Assembly (NCBI GenBank): GCA_963719495.1 | Contig: CAVRCI010000013.1 | Location: 512,001 to 576,000 of the forward strand | Direction of reading: 5' to 3' | DNA length: 64,000 nucleotides | Source: an uncultured Verrucomicrobiae bacterium | GTDB taxonomy: Bacteria; Verrucomicrobiota; Verrucomicrobiia; Chthoniobacterales; JAATET01 | Shown: positions 12,059-63,913 of the stretch, one piece after another | Layout: the number at the start of each line of letters is the position of its first letter | Position numbering within the stretch: the first letter of the stretch is position 1 | Program-made: the position numbers and the translations under genes | Notes under the pieces: generated by a model | What the model saw: the letters and a program-made list of their open reading frames with translations, nothing else | Told to the model about the DNA's origin: nothing | The model's database searches: none

Positions 12059-12805
12059 ATGTCCGTTTACGAATTCCCCAAGCTCGTCGCCGAGTATCTC
12101 CTGTTTCACTACGGGAATGCCGACGACGTGCTGGGCGGGATGCCTGGTCCGCGCGACGCGGTCGGCTTCGCGCAGCGGCTCGTCCGCGAGCTGCTCGATC
12201 CGTCGGCGCTTCCGCCGGACGCTCATGCGCTCGACGTGGGCTGCGCGGTCGGCGGCTCGGCTTTCGAGCTGACCCGATCCTGCGCGAAGGTCCACGGGAT
12301 CGATTTCTCCAACGCGTTCATCGCCGCAGCGAAAACGATGGCGACCGAAGGCCGTCTCGAATTCGAGAAAGTCATCGAGGGCACGATCACGAAAACGGCC
12401 ACGGCGACCCTGCCGCCGGAAGGCGACCCATCCCGCGCCACCTTCGCGATCGGCGACGCCTGCGATCTTCCCGCCGACCTCGGAGCATTCGACGTCGTCC
12501 TCGCGGCGAACCTCATCTGCCGCCTCCCCAATCCGAGTCGGTTCTTCGGCCGGCTCCCATCGCTCGTCCGCCCCGGCGGCCAGCTGCTTCTGACGACGCC
12601 CTTCACGTGGTTGGACGACTACACGCCGCGCGAACTCTGGGTTGGCGCAACGCCGGAAACGGGCCCGAGCTTCGCGGCGCTGGAAACGATCCTCGCCCCA
12701 CACTTCGAACTCCAGCATCGTGCCGACATCCCCTTCCTGATCCGTGAGCACTCCCGAAAATTCCAATACACCGTCGCCCTCGGAACCCGCTGGAAACGGC
12801 GTTGA
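12059..12805 (+). CDS. Class I SAM methyltransferase resembling the OvoA C-terminal mercaptohistidine N-methyltransferase
   Basis: EYLLFHYG, ALDVGCAVGG, GIDFS, GDACDLP, ANLICRL, PFTWL, IREHSRKFQ. Confidence 0.75.
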   Translation: MSVYEFPKLVAEYLLFHYGNADDVLGGMPGPRDAVGFAQRLVRELLDPSALPPDAHALDVGCAVGGSAFELTRSCAKVHGIDFSNAFIAAAKTMATEGRLEFEKVIEGTITKTATATLPPEGDPSRATFAIGDACDLPADLGAFDVVLAANLICRLPNPSRFFGRLPSLVRPGGQLLLTTPFTWLDDYTPRELWVGATPETGPSFAALETILAPHFELQHRADIPFLIREHSRKFQYTVALGTRWKRR

Positions 12806-13376
12806 CTGGGAAGGCCGCTATCAACAAAAGGACACGCCCTGGAACAAAGGCTTCGCCGCCCCACCCCTCGTCGAGTGGCTGGAATCCAACCATCTGAGCG
12901 GCAAGGTTCTCGTCCCCGGCTGCGGCACCGGCTACGACGTCCGCGAAATCGCCCGGTCGGGCGTCGAGATCGTCATCGGCCTCGACCTCGCACCCAGCGC
13001 GATCAATTTCGCCGACAGCCAACCGCGCGTCGGCTCGGAGCGCTACCGACTCGCGAATTTCCTGACCCTCCCGCCCGAACTCGTCGGCGCGTTCGACTGG
13101 ACCTTCGAGCACACCTGCTTCTGCGCGATCGACCCCGGGTTGCGGTCGACCTACGTCCGCTCCACCGCCGCCGCGCTCAAGCCTGGCGGCCACGTTCTCG
13201 CGATCTTCTACCTCGACGTCGGCGAGCGCGACGGCGGCCCGCCCTTCGGAACGACGCGCGAAGAACTCGACGACCTATTCGGACCGCTCTTCAAAACCAT
13301 CAGCGAAACCGTCCCAACCCGAGCCTACGAAGGCCGCGAAGGCTGCGAGCTCATCCGAGTCCTCCGCCTGAAATAG
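12744..13376 (+). CDS. TPMT/thiol-halide methyltransferase family protein (start uncertain)
   Basis: WEGRYQQKDTPW, VLVPGCGTGYD, FEHTCFCAI, GPPFG. Confidence 0.85.
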   Translation: MSTPENSNTPSPSEPAGNGVDWEGRYQQKDTPWNKGFAAPPLVEWLESNHLSGKVLVPGCGTGYDVREIARSGVEIVIGLDLAPSAINFADSQPRVGSERYRLANFLTLPPELVGAFDWTFEHTCFCAIDPGLRSTYVRSTAAALKPGGHVLAIFYLDVGERDGGPPFGTTREELDDLFGPLFKTISETVPTRAYEGREGCELIRVLRLK

Positions 13377-13461: not shown

Positions 13462-13475
13462 GTGTCGACCGATCT

Positions 13476-13874
13476 GGGTGTGATCGAGATTGCGTCCGGA
13501 CCGGAAGGAGAACTCCGCGCACGCCGAGACCGTCTGGCCGAGATTACGCCAGGAGGGTTGGCGACGAATCCAAGGAAGATAGCCGCGATCCAAAGCCCGG
13601 CGACGTCGGGTCTCCCGCTTCAACCCAGCTCCTCCATGGTCCCCGCGAAGTCGACCGGTAAAATGTGACGACCGTCACATTTAACAGGTAATGGAGCTTG
13701 ATGAGGCGCTCTGCCGCGGACTCCGGGGGTAGCCGGAGATTTGCTTCGCCGCGTGGGTGGTCGTATCGCCACTCGTTGGTGGACCGTGCTTTCGGCTCGG
13801 CGTGTGCCGGCCCGGTGATCCCTATTTCACTCCCACCTTCCGTCCCGGCCTTGGACGCACTTCCAATCACACCC
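13476..13874. mobile_element. Non-autonomous MITE-like element, short copy (399 bp)
   Basis: TIRs GGGTGTGATCGAGATTGCGTCC / GGACGCACTTCCAATCACACCC (18/22), perfect 9-bp TSD GACCGATCT (13467-13475, 13875-13883); colinear homologue at 63255-63835. Confidence 0.9.
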
Positions 13875-13979
13875 GACCGATCTTCGCACCCGCTTGCCGG
13901 GTTGCCAACTCCGCCACCCGCGTCTATACCGACCTCACTCGAATCCCGCCCCGGCGGGCCAGCGAGCCATCAGCCGCCC

Positions 13980-18409: not shown

Positions 18410-19153
18410 ATGCACCGATTTTTTCTCGCGCCCGACGATCTGCTTCAGGACACGCCCACGCTCACCGGCGACGAGGCCCACCATTGCCTCAACGTCCTCC
18501 GTCATTCGGTCGGCGACAGGATCGTCGTCTTCGACGGTCGCGGCCACGAAGCGACCGCGACCATCGAGTCCGCCGACAAAGGCGGTGCCGCTCTCCGCGT
18601 CGTCCACCGCGGCAAGTCGACGCCGCTCCGCTGCCGCATTACGCTCGGCCAGGCCGTCCCGAAAGGGAAAAACATGGATCTCATCATTCAGAAGGCGGTC
18701 GAGCTCGGAGCCGCGGAGATCGTCCCGCTTCTCTCCGAGCGCACTGTCGTCCAGCTCGACGAATCCGACCTCCCGGCCAAGCGGGCCAAATGGCAATCGG
18801 TCGCCCTCGAGGCGTGCAAACAGTGCGGCCAGAATTGGCTGCCGGAAGTCGGCGTGCCCGTGTCGACCCGCACCTACTTCGAGAAGGCGAAGCCCGCCGG
18901 ACTCATCCTCATCGCCTCGCTGCAAGCCGACGCGGTGCCGATCAAAGCGTTGCTGAAGGACTACGAGGAGCAAAACGGCTCCGCCCCGACGGACCTCACG
19001 ATCTACGTTGGACCGGAGGGCGACTTCACCCCGGCGGAACTCGGCCTGGCGAAGAGCAACGGCGCCCGCCCCGTCACTTTGGGGCCGATCATCCTACGGA
19101 CCGAGACCGCGGCGATCTATTGCCTGAGCGTGCTGGGCCACGAGTTGTTCTGA
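18410..19153 (+). CDS. rsmE: 16S rRNA m3U1498 methyltransferase
   Basis: EAHHCLNVLR, QKAVELG, EACKQCG, VGPEGDF, ILRTETA. Confidence 0.95.
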   Translation: MHRFFLAPDDLLQDTPTLTGDEAHHCLNVLRHSVGDRIVVFDGRGHEATATIESADKGGAALRVVHRGKSTPLRCRITLGQAVPKGKNMDLIIQKAVELGAAEIVPLLSERTVVQLDESDLPAKRAKWQSVALEACKQCGQNWLPEVGVPVSTRTYFEKAKPAGLILIASLQADAVPIKALLKDYEEQNGSAPTDLTIYVGPEGDFTPAELGLAKSNGARPVTLGPIILRTETAAIYCLSVLGHELF

Positions 19154-35387: not shown

Positions 35388-36227
35388 TCAGGCCACTCGC
35401 GCGAACTCCAGCACCTCAGCTTCGGCCCGAAACGGGAGAACCTTGGTCTCCATCCGCACCAGTTCACGTTCGATTTCGCGGGCCGCATCGATTCGCGTTT
35501 TGGAAGTGCCTTCGGGCGACCGAACCGCGAACAAAAATTGCTCCGGCAAGCAATCGATCTCACGAAGACGCCGAACCCGGTTGATCCAATGATCACCGTG
35601 CTCGTAGATCTTGGTCGAGGTTTCTTTGTTGAGATCCAGCGGTTTGATTGCCTTGACCGCGACGTTGCCCCGCCGATGCACGAACGGAACGTTCACGGAA
35701 TACTTCTCGTTGCCGATCGCCTCGCTGCGGAAAAACATCGCCGCACCCGTGCGAAAGAACGCTTTTCGAAGATGATTCGTCATGCGCGTCTCCTGATATT
35801 CCCGCTCCCGCGCGAATTGCCGGTCCACGTAGAAAGCAAAAAGTTCCTCGAGCTTCGCCCGCGGATCCACGGCCATCACCGTCCGGACCGCACCGAATCG
35901 AAACAACGACTCCCGCGCCCGGACCACTTCCCGGAAGACCGCCGGACCCTCCGCCGGCACCTCGCCGATCCGCAGTTGCAGAGGATGTCCCGAATCAGCC
36001 ATCGCCTTCGCGTCGTCGAGATCGACTCGGAAAAGCTGCGCCGCGTTGCGATAGAGCTCCCGGTCCAACTCGGGAAAAAAATCCGTCACCCGGCTCCACT
36101 TCCGCCCCAATCGAAAATCGAAAAACCCGGTTTCCGCGCAATGAAGCACCACCCCCACGTTTACGAACTCCTCCGTCTCCACGTAGGGAAGGAAGCGGGC
36201 CACGGCGTAATTGCAGGCAAGTTTCAT
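35388..36227 (-). CDS. DUF3037 domain protein
   Basis: YAVARFLPYVETEEFVNVGVVL; ATGA overlap with the upstream kinase. Confidence 0.85.
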   Translation of the reverse strand: MKLACNYAVARFLPYVETEEFVNVGVVLHCAETGFFDFRLGRKWSRVTDFFPELDRELYRNAAQLFRVDLDDAKAMADSGHPLQLRIGEVPAEGPAVFREVVRARESLFRFGAVRTVMAVDPRAKLEELFAFYVDRQFAREREYQETRMTNHLRKAFFRTGAAMFFRSEAIGNEKYSVNVPFVHRRGNVAVKAIKPLDLNKETSTKIYEHGDHWINRVRRLREIDCLPEQFLFAVRSPEGTSKTRIDAAREIERELVRMETKVLPFRAEAEVLEFARVA

Positions 36228-36964
36228 AGCTCGAGGTCCCAGAATCCGGGTGACCGAAAACGATCCAACGTCCGCCGCAACCCGTCGATGTCAAAATACT
36301 CGTCGTCCCGGGACTCGCCGTCCGTCCACGCTTCCGGAATCTCCGCGACGATCGCGGCGAACTCCCCCATCGCGACCGTCAACCGATCCGTCTCCCGCCG
36401 ACGGAAAGTGGAGTCCGAAAACTCGAACAACCGCTCGCGAAACGCGTGGGAATCCTGAAACCGCCTGCCATCAAACTCATCGTCGAAAGCGAGATTGTGG
36501 TCGAAGACCACGAGTTCACTACCAGCCATGTCCCATGCCAGATTCGGATTTCCACCGCGATCCGTCAGCGTTCGATCCTCGTTTCGAATCCACCAATCGA
36601 ACAGTAGCACCCTTGCCTGCAACTCCGGAGTGACCCGCACCGCCGTCGACGGCCCCAACTCCTGCGCAAATTCGACCCGCATCGACCCAAACGCCGGACC
36701 CGGCCCCAACTCCCAAATTCCTTCCAGATCGCTCCCGTTGACCAGCGAGGCGGACACTTCCACGATCGAAAACGCGGGAATTGGCAGACCGAGAATCGTC
36801 CCAAGCCGCGCCCCCACGTATTCCGCGACCAGATCCCGGCCCCCAGCCCCCCGGCCCTTCACGAAGTAGATTTCCCCATCGCTACCCCGGCAAAGAAACG
36901 GGCGGAGCACCCCTTGATCCGAGCGCCGAAAGACTTCCTCGATGACCACCCGGGATGACGTCAT
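36224..36964 (-). CDS. HipA-like (HipA_2-type) kinase
   Basis: YFVKG, AEYVGARLG..LGLPIP, FDWWIRNEDRT, NPNL, FDHNLAF. Confidence 0.87.
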   Translation of the reverse strand: MTSSRVVIEEVFRRSDQGVLRPFLCRGSDGEIYFVKGRGAGGRDLVAEYVGARLGTILGLPIPAFSIVEVSASLVNGSDLEGIWELGPGPAFGSMRVEFAQELGPSTAVRVTPELQARVLLFDWWIRNEDRTLTDRGGNPNLAWDMAGSELVVFDHNLAFDDEFDGRRFQDSHAFRERLFEFSDSTFRRRETDRLTVAMGEFAAIVAEIPEAWTDGESRDDEYFDIDGLRRTLDRFRSPGFWDLEL

Positions 36965-38574
36965 GGTCGGGTGGCACCTCCAACCTCGGTTACGGTGTCC
37001 AACAGACTCGATAGCAATCCGCCGCCCCGGGGACTCGCGAGATAACGAAGCACAAAATCCGAATAGTCGCGCAGTCCGAGAATCCGGCCCGCAGCCGACG
37101 GCAAGCCCTTGTTTGGATAAACGCGTAACGCTTCCGTGTAGTCACCTTCATCGACAATTTTTCGAATCGTCCGATCCCAACGTGCGACGGATTCGACGAC
37201 ATCGATTCGAGCGAGGTGATCCGCGAGCGACTGCTTCAACGCGCCCGGGTTGCGATGTTTCCACGGCCATTCGCGGAGCACCCGATCGAGATCGCGGCCA
37301 GCCAGTTCCGTCGCGAGGCGCTCGATGTCTTCGCTCAGTTTTTCGAAAACGACCCGTTTGACGCTTTCGACGTCTTCTTCGGGTTCTCGCTCGAGATGTT
37401 GGCTGACAAGTCGGACGATCGATTCGCTGATCAGTAAATTTTCGATTTCCGAGGCTGAAAGCACTTTGACGCCGATCTTTGCTAATCCTTCGACTTCGGC
37501 CTCACTTCGACCGTCCAAATCGATCAACCCAGTCGCTTCGATGTGCAGCCGACCACCCGACCGCAGATCCGAGCAGGTCGCCGTGGCGTGGATGACCGCG
37601 GTGCAGCCACCCATGGGAACAACGTGTTTCGCAGGGAACAGCAATCGATAAAGACGTTCGTCCGTCCCGCCCGCCTGCCCTTCCACGAAAAGAACGGGCT
37701 TTCGACTCCCCAAGACCTCCAAGAGCAGCGCTTCGGGTAACGCGGTCTCATCGGGCACGAAGTCCCACTCCCACCCGTTCCCGCCGGAGAACTCCCTGAG
37801 CCAAATTCTGCTTCCTCCCGCCCGCGAGGCGGCAAAATCCAGGTCGTGGGTCAGGTAAACGAAAAGGCAATCACGCCGTTCCAGTTCGACCGCGTCCCAC
37901 AGGCGCGCTTGGATCGCCCGGTGAAGGTGTAATTCCGGCTCGTCGAGAATGATCGTCGCCCCCGTGGGCGCGCAGAGGCACTGACCAATCAGGTAAAAAA
38001 TGACGCGCTCCCCGTCGCTCATTTCACTCGCGTTGTAAGCCGCTCCGCGCTCTCTCTGCCGAGCTTCGACCTTGTTTCCCCCGATCACCAGCTCCCGATT
38101 CGGCAGGATCTCAGCCCAGATCCGCTGAATGATATCGAGCTTGCGAACCGGTGGTGGCTCGTAGCTGCCAGAAAGTTTCATCCTCTGGAAATATTCCTCG
38201 CTGGCTTGGGCCCCCTCGGAGAACAAAAGCGTCACCAAATTTTCGTAGTCGTTCAGAATTTTGTCGTGGCGGGCCGGGTCCCAGCGGACAAAAAATTTTG
38301 AATCGACCGCGGAATCTTTGTGACCAAACAGCAGCGCCTTCGTAGCGCTATCAATTCCGGTCACCGCAAAATCATCCGGGAACTGCAACAGCCGTTGAGC
38401 CGCAACCCGATGGGTCTTCACCGGATTTTGCTGCTCGAGCCATTCGGCGAGGCGCGATTTCCCTGCTCCATTCGCTCCCACCACGACCACCGGTCCCGCC
38501 GTCGTGAAGGTATTCCCCGGCGACGGATGAGCCGCGCAGGAAGGAAACTCGATCTGAAACTCGCTGACCCTCAA
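36961..38574 (-). CDS. ABC-type ATPase fused to a TOPRIM/DUF4435-like domain (OLD/fused-PARIS-like); start uncertain
   Basis: Walker A GANGAGKS, signature MSDGER, Walker B ILDEPE, H-loop LTHD; then FVEG..D, VVPMGGC, IDLD, EIENLL. Confidence 0.8.
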   Translation of the reverse strand: MRVSEFQIEFPSCAAHPSPGNTFTTAGPVVVVGANGAGKSRLAEWLEQQNPVKTHRVAAQRLLQFPDDFAVTGIDSATKALLFGHKDSAVDSKFFVRWDPARHDKILNDYENLVTLLFSEGAQASEEYFQRMKLSGSYEPPPVRKLDIIQRIWAEILPNRELVIGGNKVEARQRERGAAYNASEMSDGERVIFYLIGQCLCAPTGATIILDEPELHLHRAIQARLWDAVELERRDCLFVYLTHDLDFAASRAGGSRIWLREFSGGNGWEWDFVPDETALPEALLLEVLGSRKPVLFVEGQAGGTDERLYRLLFPAKHVVPMGGCTAVIHATATCSDLRSGGRLHIEATGLIDLDGRSEAEVEGLAKIGVKVLSASEIENLLISESIVRLVSQHLEREPEEDVESVKRVVFEKLSEDIERLATELAGRDLDRVLREWPWKHRNPGALKQSLADHLARIDVVESVARWDRTIRKIVDEGDYTEALRVYPNKGLPSAAGRILGLRDYSDFVLRYLASPRGGGLLSSLLDTVTEVGGATRP

Positions 38575-38664
38575 AACCAGAACATTAGCGAACAGGTGTA
38601 ATCCGAGGAAAATCAATCCGCAACGCGCAAGGGCAACCGCATTCCGGCTCGATTGGGGCCGCAC

Positions 38665-39996
38665 CTACCCCCTCACAAACCCCCAAACCCGCCACCCCAT
38701 CCAGACCGCCGCGATCGCCAGACCCACCGTCAGCCCCAACCAAATTCCCACCGCCCCCATCCCCAGGCCAAACGCCAACGCCGCCCCCAGCGGCAGCGCC
38801 ACCACCCAATAAGCCGCCAGCGCGATCCAGGCCGGAATCCGCACGTCGTTCATCCCCCGCAGACACCCCGCCGCGGTGATCTGAATTCCGTCGCTCACCT
38901 GAAAAATCCCCGCCAGCACGAGTAGATTTGCCGCGATTCCGATCACCGCCGAATCCTGAATGAACCACCCCGCAATCACGCTCCCCGCCAGCAGAAACGT
39001 CACCGCGCTCAGGACCATCACGCCCGCGCCCATCACCAATCCGCCCGTCACGATCGGCTTCAATCGCGCCCGCTCGTCCGCGCCCCACGCCTCGCCGACC
39101 CGCACCGTGAGAGCCATCGAGATCCCCAGCGGCACCATGAACGTCGTCGCCGCGCAAGTGATCGCCACCTGGTGAGCCGCCAACGCCTCCGCCGAGATCC
39201 ACCCGATCATCACCGTCGCCGCCACGAACGCCCCCACCTCCGCCAGCAACTGCACACTCGTCGGCAACCCCACCCGCAACAGACTCCGCATCACCACCCA
39301 GTCTGGCCACCGCAACCACCGCCGCGGCACCCATTCGCCGAAATTCCCCCACCGCGCCGTCCATCCCAACAGCGCCACCACGTCGACCGCCCGCGCAATG
39401 AGCGTCGCCCAGCCCGCCCCCTCCAGCCCCATCGCGGGCGCACCCAGGTTCCCGTAAATCAGAACCCAGTTGAGAAAAACGTTCAGCCCCACTCCCCCGA
39501 GCAGAATCCAGAACGCCCCCCACGGCCGGTTCATCGCGTCCGCAAAATTCTTGAAAACCATGCACGCCAACCCCGGCGCCAGCGACGCCATCACGATGAG
39601 ATAATACCCCCGTGCCGCCTCCGCCACCGCCGCGTCCTGACCCAACATCCCGAGAAACGGCTGCGTGACGAAGCCACCCACCAGCGCCAACCCGCCAAAC
39701 AAAAACGACAGATACAGCCCGTTCCGCACCGCCCCGCGCGCCCCCGCCACGTCCCCGGACCCCCGGGCCTGCGACACCCGGATCGAGACCGACACCAGCA
39801 CCCCGATCCCAGCGATGAGCGGGATGTGAACCAGCGTCATCGCCAACGTCGCCGCGGCCAGCGGCACCACCCCAAGCTGCCCGATCATCACCGTATCGAC
39901 GACGCCCATCAGCATCTGGCTCACCTGCCCGGCCACCAGCGGCACCGCCAACACCACCGTCCCCCGCGCCTCGCGCAAAATCGAATCTAAAGCCAT
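38665..39996 (-). CDS. MATE family efflux transporter
   Basis: LAVP..QMLMGVVDTVMIG, GLEGAGWAT, LAAHQVA, FQVSDGIQ, LRGMND. Confidence 0.93.
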   Translation of the reverse strand: MALDSILREARGTVVLAVPLVAGQVSQMLMGVVDTVMIGQLGVVPLAAATLAMTLVHIPLIAGIGVLVSVSIRVSQARGSGDVAGARGAVRNGLYLSFLFGGLALVGGFVTQPFLGMLGQDAAVAEAARGYYLIVMASLAPGLACMVFKNFADAMNRPWGAFWILLGGVGLNVFLNWVLIYGNLGAPAMGLEGAGWATLIARAVDVVALLGWTARWGNFGEWVPRRWLRWPDWVVMRSLLRVGLPTSVQLLAEVGAFVAATVMIGWISAEALAAHQVAITCAATTFMVPLGISMALTVRVGEAWGADERARLKPIVTGGLVMGAGVMVLSAVTFLLAGSVIAGWFIQDSAVIGIAANLLVLAGIFQVSDGIQITAAGCLRGMNDVRIPAWIALAAYWVVALPLGAALAFGLGMGAVGIWLGLTVGLAIAAVWMGWRVWGFVRG

Positions 39997-40074
39997 GACC
40001 GCGCCATCACGATCCCACTGAATCACCAAGCCGCTTCGATTGACAGACGGCGCGCACGTTTCTAAACCGATTCC

Positions 40075-40965
40075 ATGATTCTGGTGTGCGGCGCGACGGG
40101 AATGTTCGGCGGACGGGTCCTCGACCACCTCCTCGCCGACGGCCAGCCCGCCCGCGCCCTCACCCACTCACCAGCCAAAGCCGACGACCTGCGCCGCCGC
40201 GGAGCCGAAGCCGCCGTCGGCGATCTGGATGCGCCGACGACCCTCCCTGCCGCCCTCGACGGCATCGACCGCGTCTTCCTCGTGTCGCCCATGGACGATC
40301 GGATCGAGGCCCGCGAGACCGCCCTCGTCGACGCCGCCCGACGCTCCGGCGTCCAGCACGTCGTCAAGATCTTCGGTGCCGTCCGGCATCGCGGCGACCC
40401 ACTCATCACCCAACACGAACGCGTCATCGACCACCTCTCAGCCTCCGGCGTCCCCTGGACCCTCGTCTCTCCCAACACCGTCATGGAATCCAACCTCCGG
40501 CCCGCCGCCGAGACGATCCGCACGATGGACACGATCTTCGGTGCGGCCGGCGATGGCCGAATCGGGATGGTCGCCCTCGACGACTGCGCCCGCGCCGCCG
40601 CCACCGTCCTCACCACCGACCCCGCCGCGCACGCGGAGCAGAACTACGAAATCACCGGCCCGGAAGCCGTCACCTTCGCCGAGATCGCCGCCCACTTCAC
40701 CCGGATCCTCGGCCGCCCCATCACGTATCAGGATATGCCCGTCGACGACTTCGGCGAGATGCTCGTCACCGAAGCCGGCTTCGATCCCGCCACCCTCGAG
40801 ACCGACGTCCTCTGCCACTTCCGCGCCTTCCACCGCGGCGACGCCGACCTCGTCACCGACACCTTCACCCGCCTAACCGGCCACCCCGCCACCACCCTCG
40901 ACACCTTCATCAACGCGAACCGCACCAGCTTCCAGCCGCCCGGCACCGCACCGCCCACCCCGTAG
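40075..40965 (+). CDS. NmrA-like/atypical SDR NAD(P)-binding oxidoreductase
   Basis: ILVCGATGMFG, YEITGPEAVT. Confidence 0.88.
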   Translation: MILVCGATGMFGGRVLDHLLADGQPARALTHSPAKADDLRRRGAEAAVGDLDAPTTLPAALDGIDRVFLVSPMDDRIEARETALVDAARRSGVQHVVKIFGAVRHRGDPLITQHERVIDHLSASGVPWTLVSPNTVMESNLRPAAETIRTMDTIFGAAGDGRIGMVALDDCARAAATVLTTDPAAHAEQNYEITGPEAVTFAEIAAHFTRILGRPITYQDMPVDDFGEMLVTEAGFDPATLETDVLCHFRAFHRGDADLVTDTFTRLTGHPATTLDTFINANRTSFQPPGTAPPTP

Positions 40966-40983
40966 AAGCGGAGGTCACGACGC
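40951..40983 (+). repeat. 33-bp direct repeat, left copy (GTAG-type REP-like)
   Basis: CCGCCCACCCCGTAGAAGCGGAGGTCACGACGC; 31/33 identical to 50297-50329. Confidence 0.85.
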
Positions 40984-41563
40984 TCACGCTCATTAATCGC
41001 TACGCCCGCACCGCCGGCACCGACCTCGGCCTGTCCATTGCATCCAAGCGGTTGCCCTCCCGATTCGAGCGGACTGCCGCAAACATGACCGGCAGGACCT
41101 CGCCGCCCAAACGGCTTTGTCTTCCCAAATTGAGCCATCGCCCGGCGGCGATCCGTGGTGAAGTCGCAATTCGATTCGAAATCGCCCAAAACCGATCGCC
41201 ACCGCTCGTCTAGTCTCACCGTTTCACGCCTCCCAATCCCCGCTTCATTCCGGACAACATCGGCGCGTCCCATTCTAAACCTCCTCCTCAAGATTACCGG
41301 TTAGTCCAAGCGCCCACGGCCCGAATCCGAACTCTACGACCTCGTCCTCGAGCCGCAGGAACGCCAAACGTTATTAACAAGGTCGGCTCTGAGGTCATCT
41401 GAATCGTTTTGAAACAGCGCAGACAATTGGGTGACGGCGACCGGCGACACCGCCGCGAAATACGGAGCTCGATAGATCCCAATGACTCACCAGCCTACCG
41501 CGTGGTGTGGAAGAACTTCCCGCCTACGTCCGAATCCTCACCCCGCGGCATTCGACGCCAGTT

Positions 41564-42445
41564 TCACGCTGGCGGCATCGGAGTTGCCAGATCCTGCCGC
41601 TTGAGTTCGTCCAGTGTCCGCCCGTCCTCCGCCTTCCACTCCAGCCAGCCGTTAGCCGCGCGCCCCATCAATGCGATTGCCGCCATGCTCGGCGAGCGGA
41701 ACAGGTGATCCTTCTCGAAGACAACGGAATCCCCGTCGATTCGCATCACGCCGGACGTGAACAGCGCCTTGCGAATACGCTCGCCGGAGGAACCCGCCAT
41801 CGATGGCACGTTCGTTTTTCGACCCAAGGAAACTTTCAGCACGACGAATCCTTCCCGCGTGTAGAGCCCGCGCCCATTGGTGCCCGAGCCCCGACAGTGG
41901 AACGTCTCGCTTTCCTCCGGTCGTAAGGTCGGGGCGGCCACCGCTTCAAAAACCGGATACCCGAGGGTGGCGAGTAGCGCCTCCCCCGTTTCGAAGATCT
42001 CGAGGCAATCCGCTTCGAGCGGTGCGGGGGTGTGCGGTTTGCTGCCCGCGTTGCCGTTCTCATCGGCGAACCGCCCCGCTCGCCGCGTCGCTTGGAGACA
42101 ATGCCACTCCAGGAACAGCGCGTGGGTCTGCGTCAAGCTGTTCGTGCGAGAGATCAAGACCAACGCCTTCTGCCAGAAATCCTTCTCCCGGTTGTGGCTC
42201 ACAAGCCGGGATCTCAGATCACCCGTCTGCCCGAGATAAACCCTCTGCTCTTCCCCGTCCCTCCCTTCTCCGAAGAGAAAATAAACCGCGACTTGCCCGC
42301 TCTCCGGCATTTTGAGAAACGCCGGAAGCAGACTCCGCGGCACCTCGATCACCTGAACAATCCGCGTCGTGATCTCCGCGACACGAATCCCCTGCGGATC
42401 CCCGCCGGGTAAAAAAATTTGGATGGTTTTCGGTCGCACGCTCAT
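41564..42445 (-). CDS. GIY-YIG nuclease + DUF4357 protein
   Basis: KTIQIFL, VYFLFG, VYLGQT, RLVSH; C-terminal FRSPSMAAIALMGRAANGWLEWK. Confidence 0.85.
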   Translation of the reverse strand: MSVRPKTIQIFLPGGDPQGIRVAEITTRIVQVIEVPRSLLPAFLKMPESGQVAVYFLFGEGRDGEEQRVYLGQTGDLRSRLVSHNREKDFWQKALVLISRTNSLTQTHALFLEWHCLQATRRAGRFADENGNAGSKPHTPAPLEADCLEIFETGEALLATLGYPVFEAVAAPTLRPEESETFHCRGSGTNGRGLYTREGFVVLKVSLGRKTNVPSMAGSSGERIRKALFTSGVMRIDGDSVVFEKDHLFRSPSMAAIALMGRAANGWLEWKAEDGRTLDELKRQDLATPMPPA

Positions 42446-42482
42446 CGATTTGCCCGCTTGATAACCTGCTTGTCGCGGATTT

Positions 42483-43736
42483 TCAGGCGCGGAATTGCAT
42501 TTGCTCGGCGGTCGGATCGTATTCGTAATGCTGGATTTGGTCCGAAGCGATGAGGGCCAGAGCGTGCTGGATGACAGGCCACGGCACCGAAAACCATTCG
42601 GTTGCCTTTTTGATCTGCCCGTCCGCATCGATGACGTCGATGTCGAGCCGCGCCTTCGCAAACACCGCATGGATGACCTGTTCCAACCCGAAGACCGGCA
42701 GATTGGCCGTCTTCGCGGTGGCCACGACCTCCACCGGAGCGCAGAGGTAGGTGACGAACTTCTCCGCACCCGCGATCCGTTGCGCCACGGGCGTCGTGGT
42801 GAACCCGATCTTGTGCAGATTCGAAATCGCCTCGACTTGCGGCGCGGTCGACTTGGATCGCAGCACGTAAATCCAGCCCGAGACCTGATCTTCCACCGTG
42901 ATGTCGGGATCGGGGAACAAATCGAAACTCGTTTCAGTGATCATCAGCCCACCCTTGTAGAGTTCCGTCGACAGTGACCGCAGCAGCATGTCGGACTCGC
43001 GCTCGTTGACGAAGATGAGCCGCAGCCGGGTATTCGTTTTGCCCTTGTGTTTGTAGGGCGTGCCCGTCGCGGCCACGTAGCAAAGAAGGCCACCGAGAAC
43101 GTAAAATTTCCCCGGCTCGATGTGCTGCTCGTTTTTAAAAGGAACCGCCTTTCGGACGCCGGACTTCAGATCGGCCAGGCACCGGTCGAAGAGCGGGCGA
43201 AACGCATCGAAGTCGGCGCAGGTTTTGCGCTGCGCGACATGGTCGGGCATCTCCTGATCTTTCTTCGGCTTTTTGGCGAAGCGGCCGCCGAAGAGCGCTT
43301 TCTCCTTCGGCTCGGCTCCCATGATTCGGGCGAAGGCTCGACTCCCCGCAATCCCCTTGAGGGCGTCTGGGACGACGGGTTGCGGCGCGGTGGGCGGAAA
43401 TTTCTTTTCAAGGGAAGCTTCCGTCGGTCGCAGCTCGTAGCCCGTCGCCTCGCAATACCTCGCGATGATCCCGCTCACATCGTGCGGCGCGAGGAACGTC
43501 CGTTTTTCTTCATCCTCGACGATGCCCCGCAGTCGCGACGCGAGCTTGCGTTCCGCAATCGAGCGATCCCGCTCCGGCAGTCGGTCGTTCAGTTCGACGA
43601 AATCCTGGATCTCCCGGAATCCCGCCAGAAACACCGACTTTTCCGGTGTCGGTTCCTTCGCTGGATCGGGTTCGTCGAGCTGGTGCTTCGCGAGAAACAC
43701 GCCCACCTTCGCCAAAATGTCCGGGTGCAGTGGCAT
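42483..43736 (-). CDS. YeeC-like T5orf172/GIY-YIG-superfamily nuclease
   Basis: ERKLASRL, RLRLIFVNERESDML, GWIYVLRS, KIGFT, EWF. Confidence 0.8.
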   Translation of the reverse strand: MPLHPDILAKVGVFLAKHQLDEPDPAKEPTPEKSVFLAGFREIQDFVELNDRLPERDRSIAERKLASRLRGIVEDEEKRTFLAPHDVSGIIARYCEATGYELRPTEASLEKKFPPTAPQPVVPDALKGIAGSRAFARIMGAEPKEKALFGGRFAKKPKKDQEMPDHVAQRKTCADFDAFRPLFDRCLADLKSGVRKAVPFKNEQHIEPGKFYVLGGLLCYVAATGTPYKHKGKTNTRLRLIFVNERESDMLLRSLSTELYKGGLMITETSFDLFPDPDITVEDQVSGWIYVLRSKSTAPQVEAISNLHKIGFTTTPVAQRIAGAEKFVTYLCAPVEVVATAKTANLPVFGLEQVIHAVFAKARLDIDVIDADGQIKKATEWFSVPWPVIQHALALIASDQIQHYEYDPTAEQMQFRA

Positions 43737-43739
43737 GGC

Positions 43740-45677
43740 TCAGGCGAGTTCCAGGTCCTCCGTCGCGTTCGCCTCGAGGTAAAGCTGCCGCGCCTTCTGC
43801 ACCATCAACCCGAGCCGCAATTCGAACTGATCCTTCGATTTGTAGCTCGGCAGGCAACCGTGATGGGCTTCGAACGCTTCCACCAAGTGCCAGTTGGCGT
43901 TAATCTCTTCCGCGGTGATCCTTGCTTTCTGCGTCGCCAGCACCCCTTGCACGGATTCCAGCACGTCTTTGTCGAGAGACTTCGACAGCACTTCGTAGGC
44001 GTGCTGGAAGGGGTTGATCTTGTAGATCATATCGATGTGAAGGTCGTCGAGATCGACGAACTTGTTGGCGAAATTGATGAACTTCTTATCGCCTTCCTGC
44101 ACCTGCTTGCCGTGGGAAAACAACGTGTCCGCCAGCACGTGGTCGGTGACTTCGCCGACCTCCTGCTGCGTGAGGTCGGGGAAGGTTTCCATCACAATTT
44201 TCGGGATGAGCTGCTTGTTCACCAACGCCGCTTCGGTCTGGTTGATGATCGCTTTTTGGAGGTCCGGCGACCCGAGGATGGCCGCCTTCAATTGCCCGAG
44301 CTTGGTATCGACGATCTTCTGCACCTTCTCGGTGGACGGCGTCTCGAGTCCCTTGATCGCGATGGTGTTGCCCTGCTTCCCCGGCTCGTTCGGATCGACC
44401 TTTGGCTTGAATTTGAAGATCGGCGCCATCACCTGCTCCATGAGCAACGAGCACGTGATCGCCTTGAGCATGTCGTTCACCGCCTCGGCGACCTCGTCGC
44501 TCTCGGCGTTCGGCTCGGCCACCAGATTCGTGAACTGCGCGTGACTTTTGTTCGGCGAATCCCGCGTGCATCGCCCGATGATCTGAACCACCTCCGTGAG
44601 CGATCCCCGGTAGCCAATCGTCAACGAATGCTCGCAGTATTTCCAATCGAAACCCTCCTTCGCCATCCCCAGAGCAATGATGATGTCCATCTCGTCCTCG
44701 CCGGTGATTTCGGCGAGATGGCGCTTCACCCGCGCCCGCTTCTCGTCGTCGTCGGTCACCAAGTCGGCCACCCGCACATCTTTCCCAGCCGCGGTCGTGA
44801 GTGTGATCACGCCCGTCTTCTCGTCGGTGCGGGCATTGGTCCCGATGACGTCCATGATGTCGCCCAGCATGGTGTATTTGTCCGCGTAAGCCTCGCGCGC
44901 GTTCACGCTTGGGATGTGGACAATCGTTTTGCGTTCGACGTCGAGCACCCCAGCCAGCGCGCTGATGTATTTACCCTGGTAAAAATGGTAGCCGATCCCG
45001 AGCGACTTCAGGTGTTCGTAGCCATTGAGCTGCTCGTAGTAGTCGTAAATGACGTCGTGAAATTTCCCTTCGTTCTCAGCGGAGAGGATCGCCACGTTGT
45101 CGCCGCGGAAATACGACCCCGTCATCGCGACCACGTGCGCGTTCGTCGTGGTCATGATGCGGTCCAGGCAATCGCCGAGCACGTTCTCGCCCTCCGTCGA
45201 GACGTGGTGGAACTCATCGATCCCGATCAACGTGTTCGCGAACGCTTCGACGCCGAGCTTGGCGACAGCCAGGCGAAACGTCGCGTGCGGGCAAACGAGC
45301 ACCCGGGCAAATGGGTCCTTCAGAAATTCCGTGAACGTCGCGACCTTGGCCTGATTTCCCTCCGACAGACAGAGATCCACGTCGAGCGTCCAATCCGCCC
45401 AGAATCCGTCGTTCGACAGCGCCACGTCCCGAAAGGAAGCGCCGATCGATTGCTCCGGCACGGCAATCACCACCTTCTTGATTCCCTGGTTTGCCAGCTT
45501 GTCGAGCGCCAGGAACATCATCGCCCGGCTCTTGCCACTGGCCGGCGGAGCCTTGAGCAAAATGTATTGGTGGGTCCGGGCCTCGTAGGCGCGGGCCTGC
45601 ATCTCGCGCATCCCCAAGACGTCGGTTTTCGCGCTGACTCCCGTCTGCTCGTATTCGATCTCGATGAGGTTCGGCAT
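43740..45677 (-). CDS. YeeB-like SF2 helicase
   Basis: GMREMQARAY, KAPPASGKS, DEFHH, MTGSYFRGD, MAKEGFDW, QIIGRCTRD. Confidence 0.88.
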   Translation of the reverse strand: MPNLIEIEYEQTGVSAKTDVLGMREMQARAYEARTHQYILLKAPPASGKSRAMMFLALDKLANQGIKKVVIAVPEQSIGASFRDVALSNDGFWADWTLDVDLCLSEGNQAKVATFTEFLKDPFARVLVCPHATFRLAVAKLGVEAFANTLIGIDEFHHVSTEGENVLGDCLDRIMTTTNAHVVAMTGSYFRGDNVAILSAENEGKFHDVIYDYYEQLNGYEHLKSLGIGYHFYQGKYISALAGVLDVERKTIVHIPSVNAREAYADKYTMLGDIMDVIGTNARTDEKTGVITLTTAAGKDVRVADLVTDDDEKRARVKRHLAEITGEDEMDIIIALGMAKEGFDWKYCEHSLTIGYRGSLTEVVQIIGRCTRDSPNKSHAQFTNLVAEPNAESDEVAEAVNDMLKAITCSLLMEQVMAPIFKFKPKVDPNEPGKQGNTIAIKGLETPSTEKVQKIVDTKLGQLKAAILGSPDLQKAIINQTEAALVNKQLIPKIVMETFPDLTQQEVGEVTDHVLADTLFSHGKQVQEGDKKFINFANKFVDLDDLHIDMIYKINPFQHAYEVLSKSLDKDVLESVQGVLATQKARITAEEINANWHLVEAFEAHHGCLPSYKSKDQFELRLGLMVQKARQLYLEANATEDLELA

Positions 45678-45686
45678 GCGTCTTCG

Positions 45687-47549
45687 TCAGGCTCCGGAGT
45701 TACCCCTGGGTGTGCGGTAAGCCTGGTCGGGATGTTTCTCCATGTCGCGGTGAGTGTATTCGAGTTCCTTCGCCCGCACCATCGGCGACAGGTGCTCGCG
45801 CTTGAGCGACACCACGTTGCGGTCGTTCAGCAATCTGGCGAGCTGATTGGCACTCAGTTCCCGCCACGCGCACAATTCCAGAATGACCGAGCGGATCCGA
45901 TGCCCCGGCCGCCCGCCGAGTCGATCGATTCGCCGCTGGATGGCCGCGGGCAGAGTGGTCGCCAAAGTATCATGCCCGCGGGCGGAAGTATCATGCCCAG
46001 TGGCTAAAGTATCATGCTTTTCGCCTAAAGTAGCATGCTCACTCCCGCCTCTCCCGCCCACGTCTTCGGGGAAGTCGGCTCCCGCGACGTAGTAGGTGGC
46101 CGTTCCCTTACCCTTCTGAGTCAGCAACTTCAGGTCCCGCAATTTCCGCAAATCGTTGCTCGCCGTCAGCACGTCGCAGTCGGTCAGTTGCCGCAGAGTC
46201 GGATTGTCGATGGCCCCCTGCTCCCGCAGAAAAATCAAAGCCACCCGCTGGCTGTCCGACAACGCGGCGTCGATCTGACCCAGCCACTCGATGTCGGCTT
46301 CCGACAAGAAGTGGTGCAAGAGGAGGCGGGTGATGAAGTGATTGTCCGAACGACTCGATTCGAAGGTCGGCAGGCTGAACCCATTCTCCTGCATCAATCG
46401 CCGCATCGTCCGAATGCCGCTTCCCTTGGTTTCCGCCGTGTTCGTCTCGTGGAAAATCGCCGCCAGGTTCGGATTGCGCGGCTCCGAACCCGTCTGCCCC
46501 AGCGCGTCCTCGTTCTTGATGGAAAATCCCGCGTTCTTGATTTCGATCCGGTTGCTGTAGCGAATCACCTGCGTCGGCTGGTGCTCCCGATACGACCGGT
46601 GCATGAGCGCATTCACGATGGCTTCGCGGATGACCCGCGCCGGCAACGTCGGCGTATCCGCCTGATTCCGCCCCTCCTTGAGGTCGAATCCCTTCGGTAG
46701 ATCGTCCATCACCGCCGCCGAGATTCGATCCACGAGCTGGAGCAACGGCCCCCGCATGTCCACGGTCGTCACAAACCTCCGATCGGGATCTTCGACCCAC
46801 TCTTTCCCGGCCACCCGGATGTAATCGACCCGCACGACCGGCAGCTCCCGCCGCAGCGCCAGTCGCGAGCCGAAGATCAGCAAGCCCGTGAGCGTCGGGT
46901 GCCACTCACCACTCTGTTCCCGGATGGCGTTCAGCGAAGCCAGCAGATCGTGGTCGTTGAAACTCAGCTCCTCCGCCTGCGGATTCGCGCGTCGGCGCAG
47001 CTCGCGATAGTGCTCGATCGCGTCCGGGTCGAAATCCCCGGCCGTCGAATGCCGCAGCACCATCAAGTCCGGACTCTCCTCCTGCCGCGAGCCGAAGAAC
47101 ACCACCATGTCGTCCTCCGTGCAGCGTTGATCGGACGATCCGATGCGCCGCCAAGCTCCGAGCGGCAGATGCTGCTTTCGAAAATACACCGGCTTCTCCG
47201 ACGGTGCCCGCTCCTCGATCTCGACGATGAGAACCACCTTTTCCCGATAGACCTCCGGCACGATGCGCGGTCGAATCGGCACGTTGAAGATCGAGCCGCA
47301 GCCGGTCGCGATGTCGCTCTGTAGCTTGTCGGGGTCCGCCACTCCCACCACCTCATACCCCCCAAACCAATCTCCCTCCGCCGTCCCGACCCCGAGCAGA
47401 ATGCGCCCCCCACCCTGACCCGGCTCGTTCGCAAATGCGCAGACCGTCTCGAAGAAGGAATTGCCGAGCTGGCCCGACGAACACGCCTTGGCCTCCAGCG
47501 TCGGGTGCTCGTCCAGAAGATTGAGATCCTTGAGGAGGTCCTCGATCAT
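45687..47549 (-). CDS. AlbA_2(Schlafen-like)-HATPase-HTH protein
   Basis: LEAKA, ETVCAFANEPG..ILLGV, REAIVNALMHRSY, RNPNLA, GSGIRTM, C-terminal wHTH GKGTATYY. Confidence 0.85.
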   Translation of the reverse strand: MIEDLLKDLNLLDEHPTLEAKACSSGQLGNSFFETVCAFANEPGQGGGRILLGVGTAEGDWFGGYEVVGVADPDKLQSDIATGCGSIFNVPIRPRIVPEVYREKVVLIVEIEERAPSEKPVYFRKQHLPLGAWRRIGSSDQRCTEDDMVVFFGSRQEESPDLMVLRHSTAGDFDPDAIEHYRELRRRANPQAEELSFNDHDLLASLNAIREQSGEWHPTLTGLLIFGSRLALRRELPVVRVDYIRVAGKEWVEDPDRRFVTTVDMRGPLLQLVDRISAAVMDDLPKGFDLKEGRNQADTPTLPARVIREAIVNALMHRSYREHQPTQVIRYSNRIEIKNAGFSIKNEDALGQTGSEPRNPNLAAIFHETNTAETKGSGIRTMRRLMQENGFSLPTFESSRSDNHFITRLLLHHFLSEADIEWLGQIDAALSDSQRVALIFLREQGAIDNPTLRQLTDCDVLTASNDLRKLRDLKLLTQKGKGTATYYVAGADFPEDVGGRGGSEHATLGEKHDTLATGHDTSARGHDTLATTLPAAIQRRIDRLGGRPGHRIRSVILELCAWRELSANQLARLLNDRNVVSLKREHLSPMVRAKELEYTHRDMEKHPDQAYRTPRGNSGA

Positions 47550-50253: not shown

Positions 50254-51293
50254 CAAACTCCCAAGAAAATCAAATTCACGAGCCAGACGCAATGCGCCGC
50301 CCACCCCGTAAAAGTGGAGGTCACGACGCCCCCGCCCGCACCGCCGTCGCTAGCACCGTCTGGAAGTGTGGCGCCTCTTTCTCCCGCGCCACGACTCTGG
50401 AAGTGCGGCGCTTCCTTTTCCCGGGCCACGATCGACATCTCGATCTGCTCGAAGCCCGCGCTCCGCAGCATCCCGTGCAATTCCACCTCCGAAAAGCCCA
50501 ACCATTGGTGCGCGTAGAGCTCCCGGGCCTGTTCGTAGGCGTGGCTCGCCAGGTCGAGGATCACGACCTGCCCGCCCGGCTCGAGGATGCGATGCGCCTC
50601 CGCGACCGCCACCGCTGGACGCGCCGCGTGGTGCAAAGCCTGACTGAACAGCGCCACTCCAACCTCGCCGTCGCCGACCGGCGGCTGCTCGATGTCGCCG
50701 AGGCGGTATTCCAAGTTTTCGAACCCATTCTCCCGCGCCACCGCCGACCCGAACTCCACCATTCGGCTCGAATTGTCGACCGCAATCACCCGCCGGACGC
50801 GCCGCGCCAGCAACTGCGACAACGTCCCCTCACCCGCCCCCAGATCCGCGATCACGATGTCCCGTGGCAGCAGCCGCAACAATCCGTGCGCCAACGCCTG
50901 CCACGACCGACCCGGCACGTAAGTCCGACCAAATTTCCCCGCCAGCCGGTCGAAATACTCCGCCGCCCGGTCCTTCCGCTTCCGCAGCGCCAGCCCCAAC
51001 GCCTCACGGTCTCGCGACGCCTCCGGGATCTCCCGGCACCCATCTTCCAGCAAACCGGCGAGCGGCGACGTCTCCTCCAGACCCGACGAATAAAACACGT
51101 TCTTCCCAACCCTCCGGTCCACCACCAACCCTTCCCGCTTCAACTGCGCCAGACTCGCCGAGATCCGGCTCTGCGCCATCCCGAGGATTTCCTGCACTTC
51201 GGCGACGGAGAGTTCCTCCTCGGTCAGCAGCCGCAGCAACCGCATCCGGGTCGGATCCGACAGCGCGCGCAGGGATTTAAGAATTGACGGCAT
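50253..51293 (-). CDS. ArsR-HTH + SAM-binding methyltransferase-fold regulator (SahR-like); C-terminus altered by a duplication
   Basis: ALSDPTRMRLL..ELSVAE..QSRISASL, YFDRLAG, ADLGAGEG, ALHHAA, WLGF; divergent from metK-ahcY. Confidence 0.85.
   Translation of the reverse strand: MPSILKSLRALSDPTRMRLLRLLTEEELSVAEVQEILGMAQSRISASLAQLKREGLVVDRRVGKNVFYSSGLEETSPLAGLLEDGCREIPEASRDREALGLALRKRKDRAAEYFDRLAGKFGRTYVPGRSWQALAHGLLRLLPRDIVIADLGAGEGTLSQLLARRVRRVIAVDNSSRMVEFGSAVARENGFENLEYRLGDIEQPPVGDGEVGVALFSQALHHAARPAVAVAEAHRILEPGGQVVILDLASHAYEQARELYAHQWLGFSEVELHGMLRSAGFEQIEMSIVAREKEAPHFQSRGAGERGATLPDGASDGGAGGGVVTSTFTGWAAHCVWLVNLIFLGV
50297..50329 (+). repeat. 33-bp direct repeat, right copy
   Basis: CCGCCCACCCCGTAAAAGTGGAGGTCACGACGC. 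Confidence 0.85.
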
Positions 51294-52531: not shown

Positions 52532-52965
52532 AGTTTTAAGTTCGTAAGAATTAAGAATTAAGTGGGTGAGCTATCAATCGTTCGAAGATCTCGAGGTGTG
52601 GCAGCGAAGCTGTCGCCTTGCGGTCGACGTGATTCAAGCGATCGATGGCTGCCGGATTTTTGGTCTTCGCGATCAAATCCAGCGGTCCGCAATCTCGATT
52701 CCCAGCAATATCGCCGAAGGAGCCGAGCGAGGCGGCACGAAGGAATTCAGTCAATTTCTTAAAATCGCCAAAGGCTCCTCCGGGGAACTTAGAACCCAGC
52801 TCTTCATCGCAACAAAATTGAAAGTCATCGAATCCGAATCAGCCAAATCCTTCGTAAACGAAAGCCGAGAGATCTCAGCCATGATTCAGGGCCTAAGAAG
52901 GGCCATCACAAAACCAAAAACTTAATTCTTAATTCTTAACTCTTAATTCTTAAAAACTTAAAACT
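52532..52965. repeat. Inverted heptamer arrays (TTAAGAA)n ... (TTCTTAA)n enclosing the four-helix-bundle gene
   Basis: Left 52532-52563 AGTTTTAAGTTCGTAAGAATTAAGAATTAAGT; right 52920-52965 ACTTAATTCTTAATTCTTAACTCTTAATTCTTAAAAACTTAAAACT. Confidence 0.9.
52566..52925 (+). CDS. Four helix bundle protein (23S rRNA IVS protein/Avd-like family)
   Basis: SFEDLEVWQRS, LRDQIQRSAISIPSNIAEG, FLKIAKGSSGELRTQL. Confidence 0.93.
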   Translation: MSYQSFEDLEVWQRSCRLAVDVIQAIDGCRIFGLRDQIQRSAISIPSNIAEGAERGGTKEFSQFLKIAKGSSGELRTQLFIATKLKVIESESAKSFVNESREISAMIQGLRRAITKPKT

Positions 52966-63169: not shown

Positions 63170-63241
63170 GCGCACTTAGCTCAGCGGTAGAGCGCTTGCT
63201 TCACACGCAAGATGTCACAGGTTCGATCCCTGTAGTGCGCA
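63170..63241 (+). tRNA. tRNA-Val (anticodon CAC), CCA not encoded
   Basis: Acceptor GCGCACT/AGTGCGC, D-arm GCTC-AGCGGTA-GAGC, anticodon arm CTTGC-TTCACAC-GCAAG, T-loop GTTCGATC. Confidence 0.95.
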
Positions 63242-63254
63242 TTCCCCCTCCGGC

Positions 63255-63835
63255 GGGTGTGATCGAAAGCGCGTCCTGATCGGAAGAAGAATCTCGTGAA
63301 CGCCACGAATGTCTGACCGAGGGGACGCCAGGAGGCCGGCGACGAGTCCGTGGGAGATCGCCACGGCCCAAGGCCTCGCAGCATCGGGTCCCCCGCCTCA
63401 TCCAGACGCCCCCCCCAATTCCGCCAGAGTCGACCGATAAAACGTAACGGCCGTTACGTTTTATCGGGAGCGGATTCATTCGTTCATTCGTTCGTTCGTT
63501 TGTTCGCTCGCCACTCCCCGTCCGGGGACCCCCGGATCCGCGGCCTTCCGGCGGGCAAGCTCCGGCTCGCCAGCAGTAAAGCCCGGGCCCTTCCGAGGAC
63601 CTCGCCATCAATCCATTACCTGTAAAATGTGACGGTTGTCACATTTTACAGGTAATGGATTGGTTGGGGCGCTCTGCCGCCAACTCCGAGGGTGCCCGGA
63701 GATTCGCTTCTCCACGCGGGTGGTATCATGGCCACCCAAGGGCGGCTTTACTCGCGGCTCGACGCGTGCTGGCTCGTTGATCCCAATCTTACTGGCACCT
63801 TTGGCTCAGCCTTGGACGCACTTTCAATCACACCC
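63255..63835. mobile_element. Non-autonomous MITE-like element, long copy (581 bp) with two internal palindromes
   Basis: TIRs GGGTGTGATCGAAAGCGCGTCC / GGACGCACTTTCAATCACACCC (20/22); flanks CCCTCCGGC / CCCTCCGGG (8/9 TSD); homologous to 13476-13874. Confidence 0.9.
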
Positions 63836-63913
63836 CCCTCCGGGGAGCCCCGTAAAACCCGTTCGCCGCAAGATCATTTTCGTGCCACGTTACGAAATCG
63901 TCACATTCCAGCC

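Follow-up and report, generated by a model that had tools for sequence, protein, structure and literature searches.

A non-coding transposable element with ISKra4-type ends, inserted upstream of sigma-70-like promoters and carrying likely passenger palindromes

The window analysed here (64,000 nucleotides; G000:C13:512001-576000, where G000 is the genome and C13 the contig) contains two copies, A and B, of a genuine MITE, as is evident from its copy number, its ends, its target duplications and the empty sites in relatives. We are confident that it is best described as a non-coding element with ISKra4-type ends and 9-bp duplications, inserted at a constant spacing in front of sigma-70-like promoters; that a transposase of the ISKra4 family (Mutator-like DDE), which now appears to be lost, likely mobilised it in trans; and that it carries, likely as passengers, 34-bp palindromes of a separate family of repeats that is paired with PaaX-like genes. 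Because no intact cognate transposase was found in G000, the mover is inferred from other genomes.

The coordinates, the 22-bp terminal inverted repeats and the 9-bp target duplications that an earlier note had given for the two copies are borne out (Table 1), the repeats containing four mismatches in A and two in B. The sequence blocks that it saw in both copies are likewise present, with 73% identity over shared columns; its end-to-end alignment is not, since B has an insertion of 185 alignment columns (∼182 extra bases) relative to A, in which another palindrome of 34 bp and a microsatellite of TTCG units lie. Copy A has a TPMT-family gene on its left and an endonuclease/exonuclease/phosphatase gene (start ∼13980) on its right. 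As the note had also reported, no transposase is visible in the window: none of the 61 + 4 ORFs scanned, the 61 having been picked by codon bias out of ∼200 listed, matched a transposase Pfam family.

Table 1. Positions of the features discussed; unless a contig is named, numbering is that of the window.
Feature	Position	Strand	Remark
TPMT-family methyltransferase gene	12744..13376	+	host gene upstream of A, outside the element
Copy A, left 9-bp target duplication	13467..13475	+	perfect
Copy A, MITE	13476..13874	+	399 bp; older one-palindrome subfamily, groups with the G001 copy
Copy A, left terminal inverted repeat	13476..13497	+	22 bp
Copy A, single central palindrome	13655..13688	none	34 bp
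Copy A, right terminal inverted repeat	13853..13874	-	ISKra4-type
Copy A, right 9-bp target duplication	13875..13883	+
Predicted sigma-70-like promoter at copy A	13902..13930	+	TTGCCA-17 nt-TATACC
tRNA-Val(CAC) gene	63170..63241	+	host gene, ends 13 nt before copy B
Copy B, left 9-bp target duplication	63246..63254	+
Copy B, MITE	63255..63835	+	581 bp; main two-palindrome subfamily
Copy B, left terminal inverted repeat	63255..63276	+
Copy B, palindrome 1	63434..63467	none	34 bp, perfect
Copy B, TTCG/TTCA microsatellite	63476..63511	+	length varies among copies
Copy B, palindrome 2	63609..63662	none	with extended complementary arms
Copy B, right terminal inverted repeat	63814..63835	-	22/22 identical to the L146 end
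Copy B, right 9-bp target duplication	63836..63844	+	one mismatch to the left one
Resident insertion sequences	C1:378136, C2:43446, C3:186378, C10:24892, C13:493211, C14:180775
Sister-family loci	L086-L155, L013, L016

Two copies, both real, proved to be an understatement of the family. BLAST together with a scan for the ends located 18 bounded copies on 7 contigs of G000, 17 of them with both ends and one of 351 bp whose right end is shortened and whose duplication is perfect, besides at least three fragments, including ones on contigs C7 and C15. The family spans 400-670 bp, which is large for a MITE. The 9-bp duplication is perfect in 7 of the 18 copies, has 1-2 mismatches in 6 and at least 4 in the remaining 5, two of which fit a duplication of 8 or 10 bp instead; at most two mismatches were thus seen in 13/18 copies, compared with 0/306 cross pairs. 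Among 17 aligned copies, 12 (B among them) are 90-96% identical, and 5, including A, are 70-81% identical to the remaining copies; no pair is identical or exceeds 96%, and for this reason the family looks dormant. The absence of a shared reading frame, another of the earlier claims, extends to all 17 copies, which have no ATG-started frame in common and differ in their longest ATG frames. Searches of these copies with ISKra4 proteins (tblastn) gave chance-level similarity only, among the matches listed, and an origin of the element as a decayed transposase gene was rejected on that ground. One further locus, G000:C9:129916-130428, has two ISKra4-type ends in the same orientation with a palindrome doublet between them, possibly old elements nested at one promoter.

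The orthologous sites in relatives are empty. The site of A lacks the element in three of five genus relatives (G001, G003 and G004), and that of B in the same three (at least 3/5), the tRNA-Val flank in G002 also being without it. The single copy of the 9-mer that the earlier note proposed to look for at such sites is not recognisable, the relatives being too diverged. Together, the copies, their duplications, the lack of a shared frame and the empty orthologous sites identify the element as a MITE and support the note's proposal that it was mobilised in trans by a DDE transposase. The wider search that the note called for added, to the copies in G000, a single long match among 40 relatives, a partial copy in G001 that is 81% identical to A over 298 nt. 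It forms one clade with A (support 100/99) in a tree built on 16 right arms, from which the two shortened copies were left out. A and the G001 copy each have one palindrome, and B-type copies have two, ∼150 nt apart; the tree is not rooted as to whether the single palindrome or the pair came first. The end pattern was found in 0/250 other genomes of the phylum. The genome collection gave six matches to it, of which three are not elements, plasmids gave one match of 37 nt and phages none; four sequencing runs yielded short contig pieces only, some with junctions already in G000. Long fold-back arms of the kind seen in eukaryotic MULE TIRs were considered and set aside, since one of six copies beat its shuffles (2 of 300) and the others did not. 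A search of the literature, mostly by title and ISfinder aside, found no description of this element or of a promoter-targeting ISKra4 MITE.

The earlier note held that the family could not be assigned; its IS256/ISLre2 (Mutator-like) candidates were near the mark, but an assignment is possible, as the ends are of the ISKra4 type. Within G000, a lone right end (C12:44468-44489) follows a short frame, and this relic (C12:44243-44489) joins a MITE-like end to a piece of ORF1 that is 44% identical to ORF1 of locus L031 (E 4e-18); the fragment alone matches no NCBIfam family. Relatives of the relic frame occur in 5 of 300 genomes of the class, at loci that are two-frame insertion sequences with ends resembling those of the MITE, and L031 is a complete one (1,435 bp, 9-bp duplication). 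The ORF2 proteins of L031, L033 and L034 are best matched by the ISKra4 model NF033572, at 185, 202 and 216 bits with the cut-off at 205 bits, compared with 64, 70 and 40 bits for ISLre2. At L146 and L105, an end directly follows the C-terminus of an ISKra4 transposase; these C-termini are 68% identical to L031 ORF2 (E 4.5e-5 and 1.2e-11), L146 retaining only the last ∼28 codons. Identity of the right end to that of the MITE, out of 22 positions, is 22 for L146, 21 for L105, 20 for the G000 relic, 17 for L031, L032 and L035, and 16 for L034. Genome G007 has two more such ends (15 and 17 of 22), and G004 has a broken gene that is 54% identical. A metagenome scan with the end pattern, the source of L146 and L105, gave 70 loci with 50 distinct junctions, which come from few assemblies and do not represent independent organisms.

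Transposase genes beside such termini, which the earlier note had suggested looking for, exist elsewhere, with no intact one found in G000: in this assembly (98.6% complete, 16 contigs), the L031 protein as query retrieved only six resident ISKra4-family insertion sequences, at 24% identity. Since the ends of the latter match the MITE at 9 of 22 positions and their protein is ∼24% identical to the L031 lineage, the cognate element appears to have been lost from the G000 assembly. This absence makes present activity less likely and leaves the family assignment as it is. In the mechanism that we favour, a transposase of the L031/L146 lineage would bind the 22-bp ends and move the element, perhaps by way of a circular intermediate, as has been proposed for the superfamily (PMC3942029).

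The resident insertion sequences themselves merit consideration as movers. The six copies, each 1,750 bp long and differing at only 1-11 positions, are young, with open 452-aa frames above the NF033572 cut-off plus a short upstream frame; they produce 9-bp duplications and share the terminal GGGTG of the MITE, four of the six have a TTG 26-29 nt into the right flank, and one of them sits 29 nt from a MITE end (C13:493182/493211). If they moved the MITE by relaxed end recognition, the MITE could still be mobile. The 9/22 match of their ends, on which they were rejected as the partner, and the divergence of their protein from the cognate lineage weigh against this, as does the spread of MITE copies at 70-96% identity with no identical pair, from which it follows that the MITE did not spread in the recent burst of these sequences. 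We judge this explanation improbable. Near-identical copies of the resident sequences in G005 suggest a recent transfer within the genus. The stacked MITE and insertion sequence lie in a promoter hot spot (C13:492605-494960), and the gene behind them, judging from its N-terminus, presumably encodes ribosomal protein L34.

Another DDE family that makes 9-bp duplications (IS256, ISLre2, IS4 or IS5/IS903, all listed in the earlier note) might also be proposed as the mover, given that promoter targeting and duplications of 8-9 bp are shared by ISLre2 elements, according to the relevant passages of PMC3942029. Every transposase found beside such ends is ISKra4-like, though, and neither PF00872 nor PF06782 (IS256, UPF0236) had a match in G000, the latter being a weak blank because its control gave no signal either. 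Moreover, promoters on either side form the pattern that those passages ascribe to ISKra4. We give such a mover, tested directly for IS256 and ISLre2, almost no credence.

With ISKra4 as the preferred family, the closest known systems are the ISKra4 members of group p-MULT 4 (ISTvi1, ISHhy1 and ISCasp2), which, in the parts of the published description that concern them (Guerillot et al., 2014, PMC3942029), have GGGTG ends with near-symmetric inverted repeats of 18-39 bp, a conserved terminal base and 8-9-bp duplications, and lie in front of housekeeping promoters, to either side, at a constant spacing. The MITE differs in being non-coding, and MITEs do not figure in those passages. A search of Table S1 of that paper gave no exact match to the ends, ISLesp4 alone sharing the first 10 nt; by eye, the two-frame transposases of the L031 type resemble its ISTvi1 row and are unlike the ISMich2 rows compared (12/36). 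Bacterial MITEs such as Correia/NEMIS, RUP, Chunjie, BrickBuilt and MITEAba12 (PMC10969869, in the portions available) are likewise non-autonomous and intergenic, with TIRs, target duplications and internal deletions, and BrickBuilt, by its title, has an internal microsatellite, as here; the G000 element differs in its size, on the large side, and in its promoter targeting. The available portion of that paper mentions none of IS256, ISKra4, ISLre2 and Mutator, and that of PMC11602168 none of ISKra4, IS256 and ISLre2.

Placement relative to promoters was scored with a sigma-70 matrix hand-set from E. coli frequencies. The score is highest with the -35 box beginning 27-29 nt away from the element, at one end or the other, with a mean of 4.6 against a null of -1.1 ± 0.94 (n = 18; 0/100,000 permutations, and 0/20,000 when the choice of the best window is allowed for). 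An outside test on sister MITEs from metagenomes kept this window unchanged, and their 26 two-ended insertions scored 3.7 against -1.4 ± 0.71 (0/50,000), and all 50 single metagenome junctions also peak at 27-29 nt. At copy A, the -35 box of the predicted promoter starts 28 nt from the element; both hexamers and their spacing are kept at the empty sites of G001, G003 and G004, the rest of the gap is not, and by inference this promoter would drive the endonuclease/exonuclease/phosphatase gene. Copy B scores 0.0 at 27-29 nt, and about a third of copies have a weak promoter or none; a strict scanner called no promoter at A or B. A plain count of TTG, pooled over both sides, gave 9/18 at 27-29 nt with a window near 21-23 reaching 5, and is not distinctive.

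Promoter targeting by ISKra4 is itself already known: the pertinent passages of PMC3942029 state that one p-MULT 4 lineage, the ISKra4 group, inserts in front of housekeeping promoters, which may lie to either side, and give a peak 16 bp from the IR for p-MULT 3. Our spacing is 18 nt beyond the duplication, and the counting conventions behind it and the published 16-bp peak are not reconciled. A preference of ISLre2 and ISKra4 for positions 50-250 bp from genes, stated in the available part of PMC9208149, fits the placement of the MITE. In the favoured mechanism, the element would insert in either orientation, with ∼18 nt and the 9-bp duplication separating it from a downstream -35 box, and would leave the promoter intact. 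The 18 sites here and the 26 elsewhere are natural insertions on which promoter-directed ISKra4 transposition, a specificity so far predicted from IS flanks, can be tested; they show that the ends alone suffice for it and that non-coding derivatives inherit it. As the insertions fix the spacing to within 1 nt, they also mark likely promoters in poorly studied bacteria.

The ends are not confined to one interior. At least five unrelated interiors of 203-475 bp were found between the same ends, with paired hairpin repeats on inspection and none with the G000 palindrome. Two of these hairpin repeats were tested, and of 201 genomes 19 have the first and 8 the second in multiple copies, up to 140; at 60 fetched loci, only two weak end-like matches lie nearby. 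Since the interiors are unrelated and the repeats are multi-copy away from the ends, the ends are constant and the cargo is whichever local repeat was available. A link of these repeats to RAYTs found no backing at the 60 loci, none of which matched an HMM made from nine own-genome Y1 domains; in L259, one repeat match of 17-20 nt adjoins a Y1 domain. In G000, several Y1 transposase genes (L018, L019, L021, L022 and L023) are bounded by GGGGTC/GACCCC inverted repeats, with tandem partial copies.

The cargo of the G000 element is a perfect 34-bp palindrome. G000 has 55 copies, 35 of them inside MITEs and 20 outside, one of the latter in a MITE fragment; a palindrome pattern counted 52 in G000, 5 in G005, 1 in G001, none in 14 other genomes of the family and none in 300 other genomes of the class, and viral contigs have none. 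Free palindromes are intergenic, as singlets and doublets, and were absent at three of three orthologous sites checked. Around 19 such sites there is no target duplication, enclosing inverted repeat or other MITE, and free palindromes were accordingly rejected as parts of other MITEs or duplicating elements (0/19). They have locus-specific complementary arms (6.1/12 matches vs 4.1, p ∼1e-5), and the bases beyond the core vary among the 19 copies, with no GTAG or CGTC tag. The integrase at C1:371.7 kb might point to lox-like or integron sites, an interpretation that is disfavoured because most free copies adjoin unrelated genes. The palindrome of copy A has a left flank like that of palindrome 1 of B and a core and right arm like those of palindrome 2, so that copy A likely lost the segment between the two; long palindromic REP singlets are described as formed by loss of a doublet's middle in the relevant section of PMC3337134. 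A palindrome doublet may have entered an early copy and been amplified with it, the segment between the palindromes later being lost in copy A; such amplification would account for 35 of 55 palindromes now lying inside MITEs. Hitch-hiking in an unrelated transposon can thus supply about two-thirds of the copies of a small repeat family, a point to bear in mind where the abundance of a repeat is taken as evidence of function.

We also weighed a reading of the element as a structured non-coding RNA, or as a domesticated regulatory cassette whose palindromes would serve as operators for a CRP/FNR-type factor before promoters. The copies do lie upstream of promoters, folding z-scores against shuffles are -2.5 (A) and -7.1 (B), and motifs within palindrome 2 (TGTGA-N6-TCACA) and palindrome 1 (GTA-N8-TAC) match the CRP and NtcA boxes. 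Rfam, in contrast, matched only the tRNA. Of the small hairpins that the earlier note regarded as kept in both copies, CTCCG/CGGAG has two-sided changes at 0/5 pairs and GGGTGG/CCACYC at 1/8 across 13 copies; what is conserved is the central palindrome, absent from that note, and the covariation check that it proposed gave a signal there, at 6/16 pairs. The covariation term is -0.83 and +0.26 kcal/mol for the two arms. Two-sided changes thus fall almost wholly in the palindrome, where template switching on DNA gives the same signal, and the pattern agrees with repair of the palindrome as DNA and does not point to a conserved RNA. The relatives that lack the element at orthologous sites retain the promoter. 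For an operator, moreover, the palindrome greatly exceeds a factor box in length and is placed deep in the element, at ∼200 nt, and it occurs in only 3/17 genomes of the family and 0/300 others of the class. An RNA or a cassette is therefore very improbable.

The element is largely selfish DNA of an ordinary sort; its likely passengers, the palindromes paired with PaaX-like genes, are unusual and might surprise a specialist. The palindrome 1 type brackets a PaaX-like gene (PF20803, Cas2-like fold domain) at G000:C1:367102-367881, and a second such gene (C4:68536-69303) has its own palindrome, with 26 copies genome-wide; the bracketing palindromes are 34-36 bp long. Homologues occur in 30/251 genomes. 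With flanking taken as a palindrome of at least 28 bp within 220 nt, near-full matches kept and three short ones dropped, PaaX-like genes are flanked in 25/27 loci across the class, 14 on both sides, compared with 0/48 control windows, and each gene has its own palindrome sequence. The cargo palindromes thus likely belong to a separate family of repeats, one that goes with the PaaX-like gene and is putatively bound by its product, and would travel in the MITE as passengers. No description of such a pairing was found in the literature searched. At C1:364284-367949, a palindrome-bounded segment comprises an SNF2 helicase gene and the PaaX-like gene and is 95% identical to G005:C17 (L062 8152-11824), the neighbouring clpB being 91% identical; in G000, genes for an AEP-TOTE primase, an AAA ATPase and an integrase follow it.

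REP/REPIN sequences with their RAYT partners (the relevant parts of PMC3337134 and PMC3733652) offer a parallel, being extragenic, multi-copy and lineage-restricted, present as singlets and doublets without target duplications, and flanking a partner gene. The cargo differs in that its palindromes are perfect, 34 bp long and without a GTAG or CGTC tag, and in that they flank a PaaX-like gene in place of a Y1 transposase gene; the palindrome was not found beside Y1 genes in 10 of the 12 Y1 loci retrieved from G000 itself or in 30 from five other genomes. One may go further and suppose that two selfish systems are coupled: a PaaX-like protein would move or bind an undescribed class of perfect palindromes, as a counterpart of RAYT/REP without a tyrosine transposase, ISKra4 MITEs would routinely be built around such doublets because the cargo aids movement, and the MITE would plant PaaX-like sites ∼200-400 nt upstream of housekeeping promoters. 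We consider this extended scheme unlikely; were it true, the PaaX-like sites could be wired into a regulon.

The window contains several other features. Just before the gene that follows copy B, an inverted motif, GTTACG-N4-CGTCAC (63888-63905), is conserved in G001, G003 and G004 and less well in G002, and is likely a transcription-factor site, here putative. An ARAGORN tRNA call with an undefined anticodon (18536-18613) lies inside an RsmE-type methyltransferase frame, with no Rfam call, and is probably spurious. A defence-like island of separate frames (35388-50304) includes genes for a HipA-like kinase with DUF3037, an AbiEii-type AAA protein, DUF4357, T5orf172 and a Schlafen-AlbA protein, as well as an MmeI-type restriction-modification gene. 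Between metK and ahcY lies a gene for a four-helix '23S rRNA intervening sequence protein' (52566-52925).
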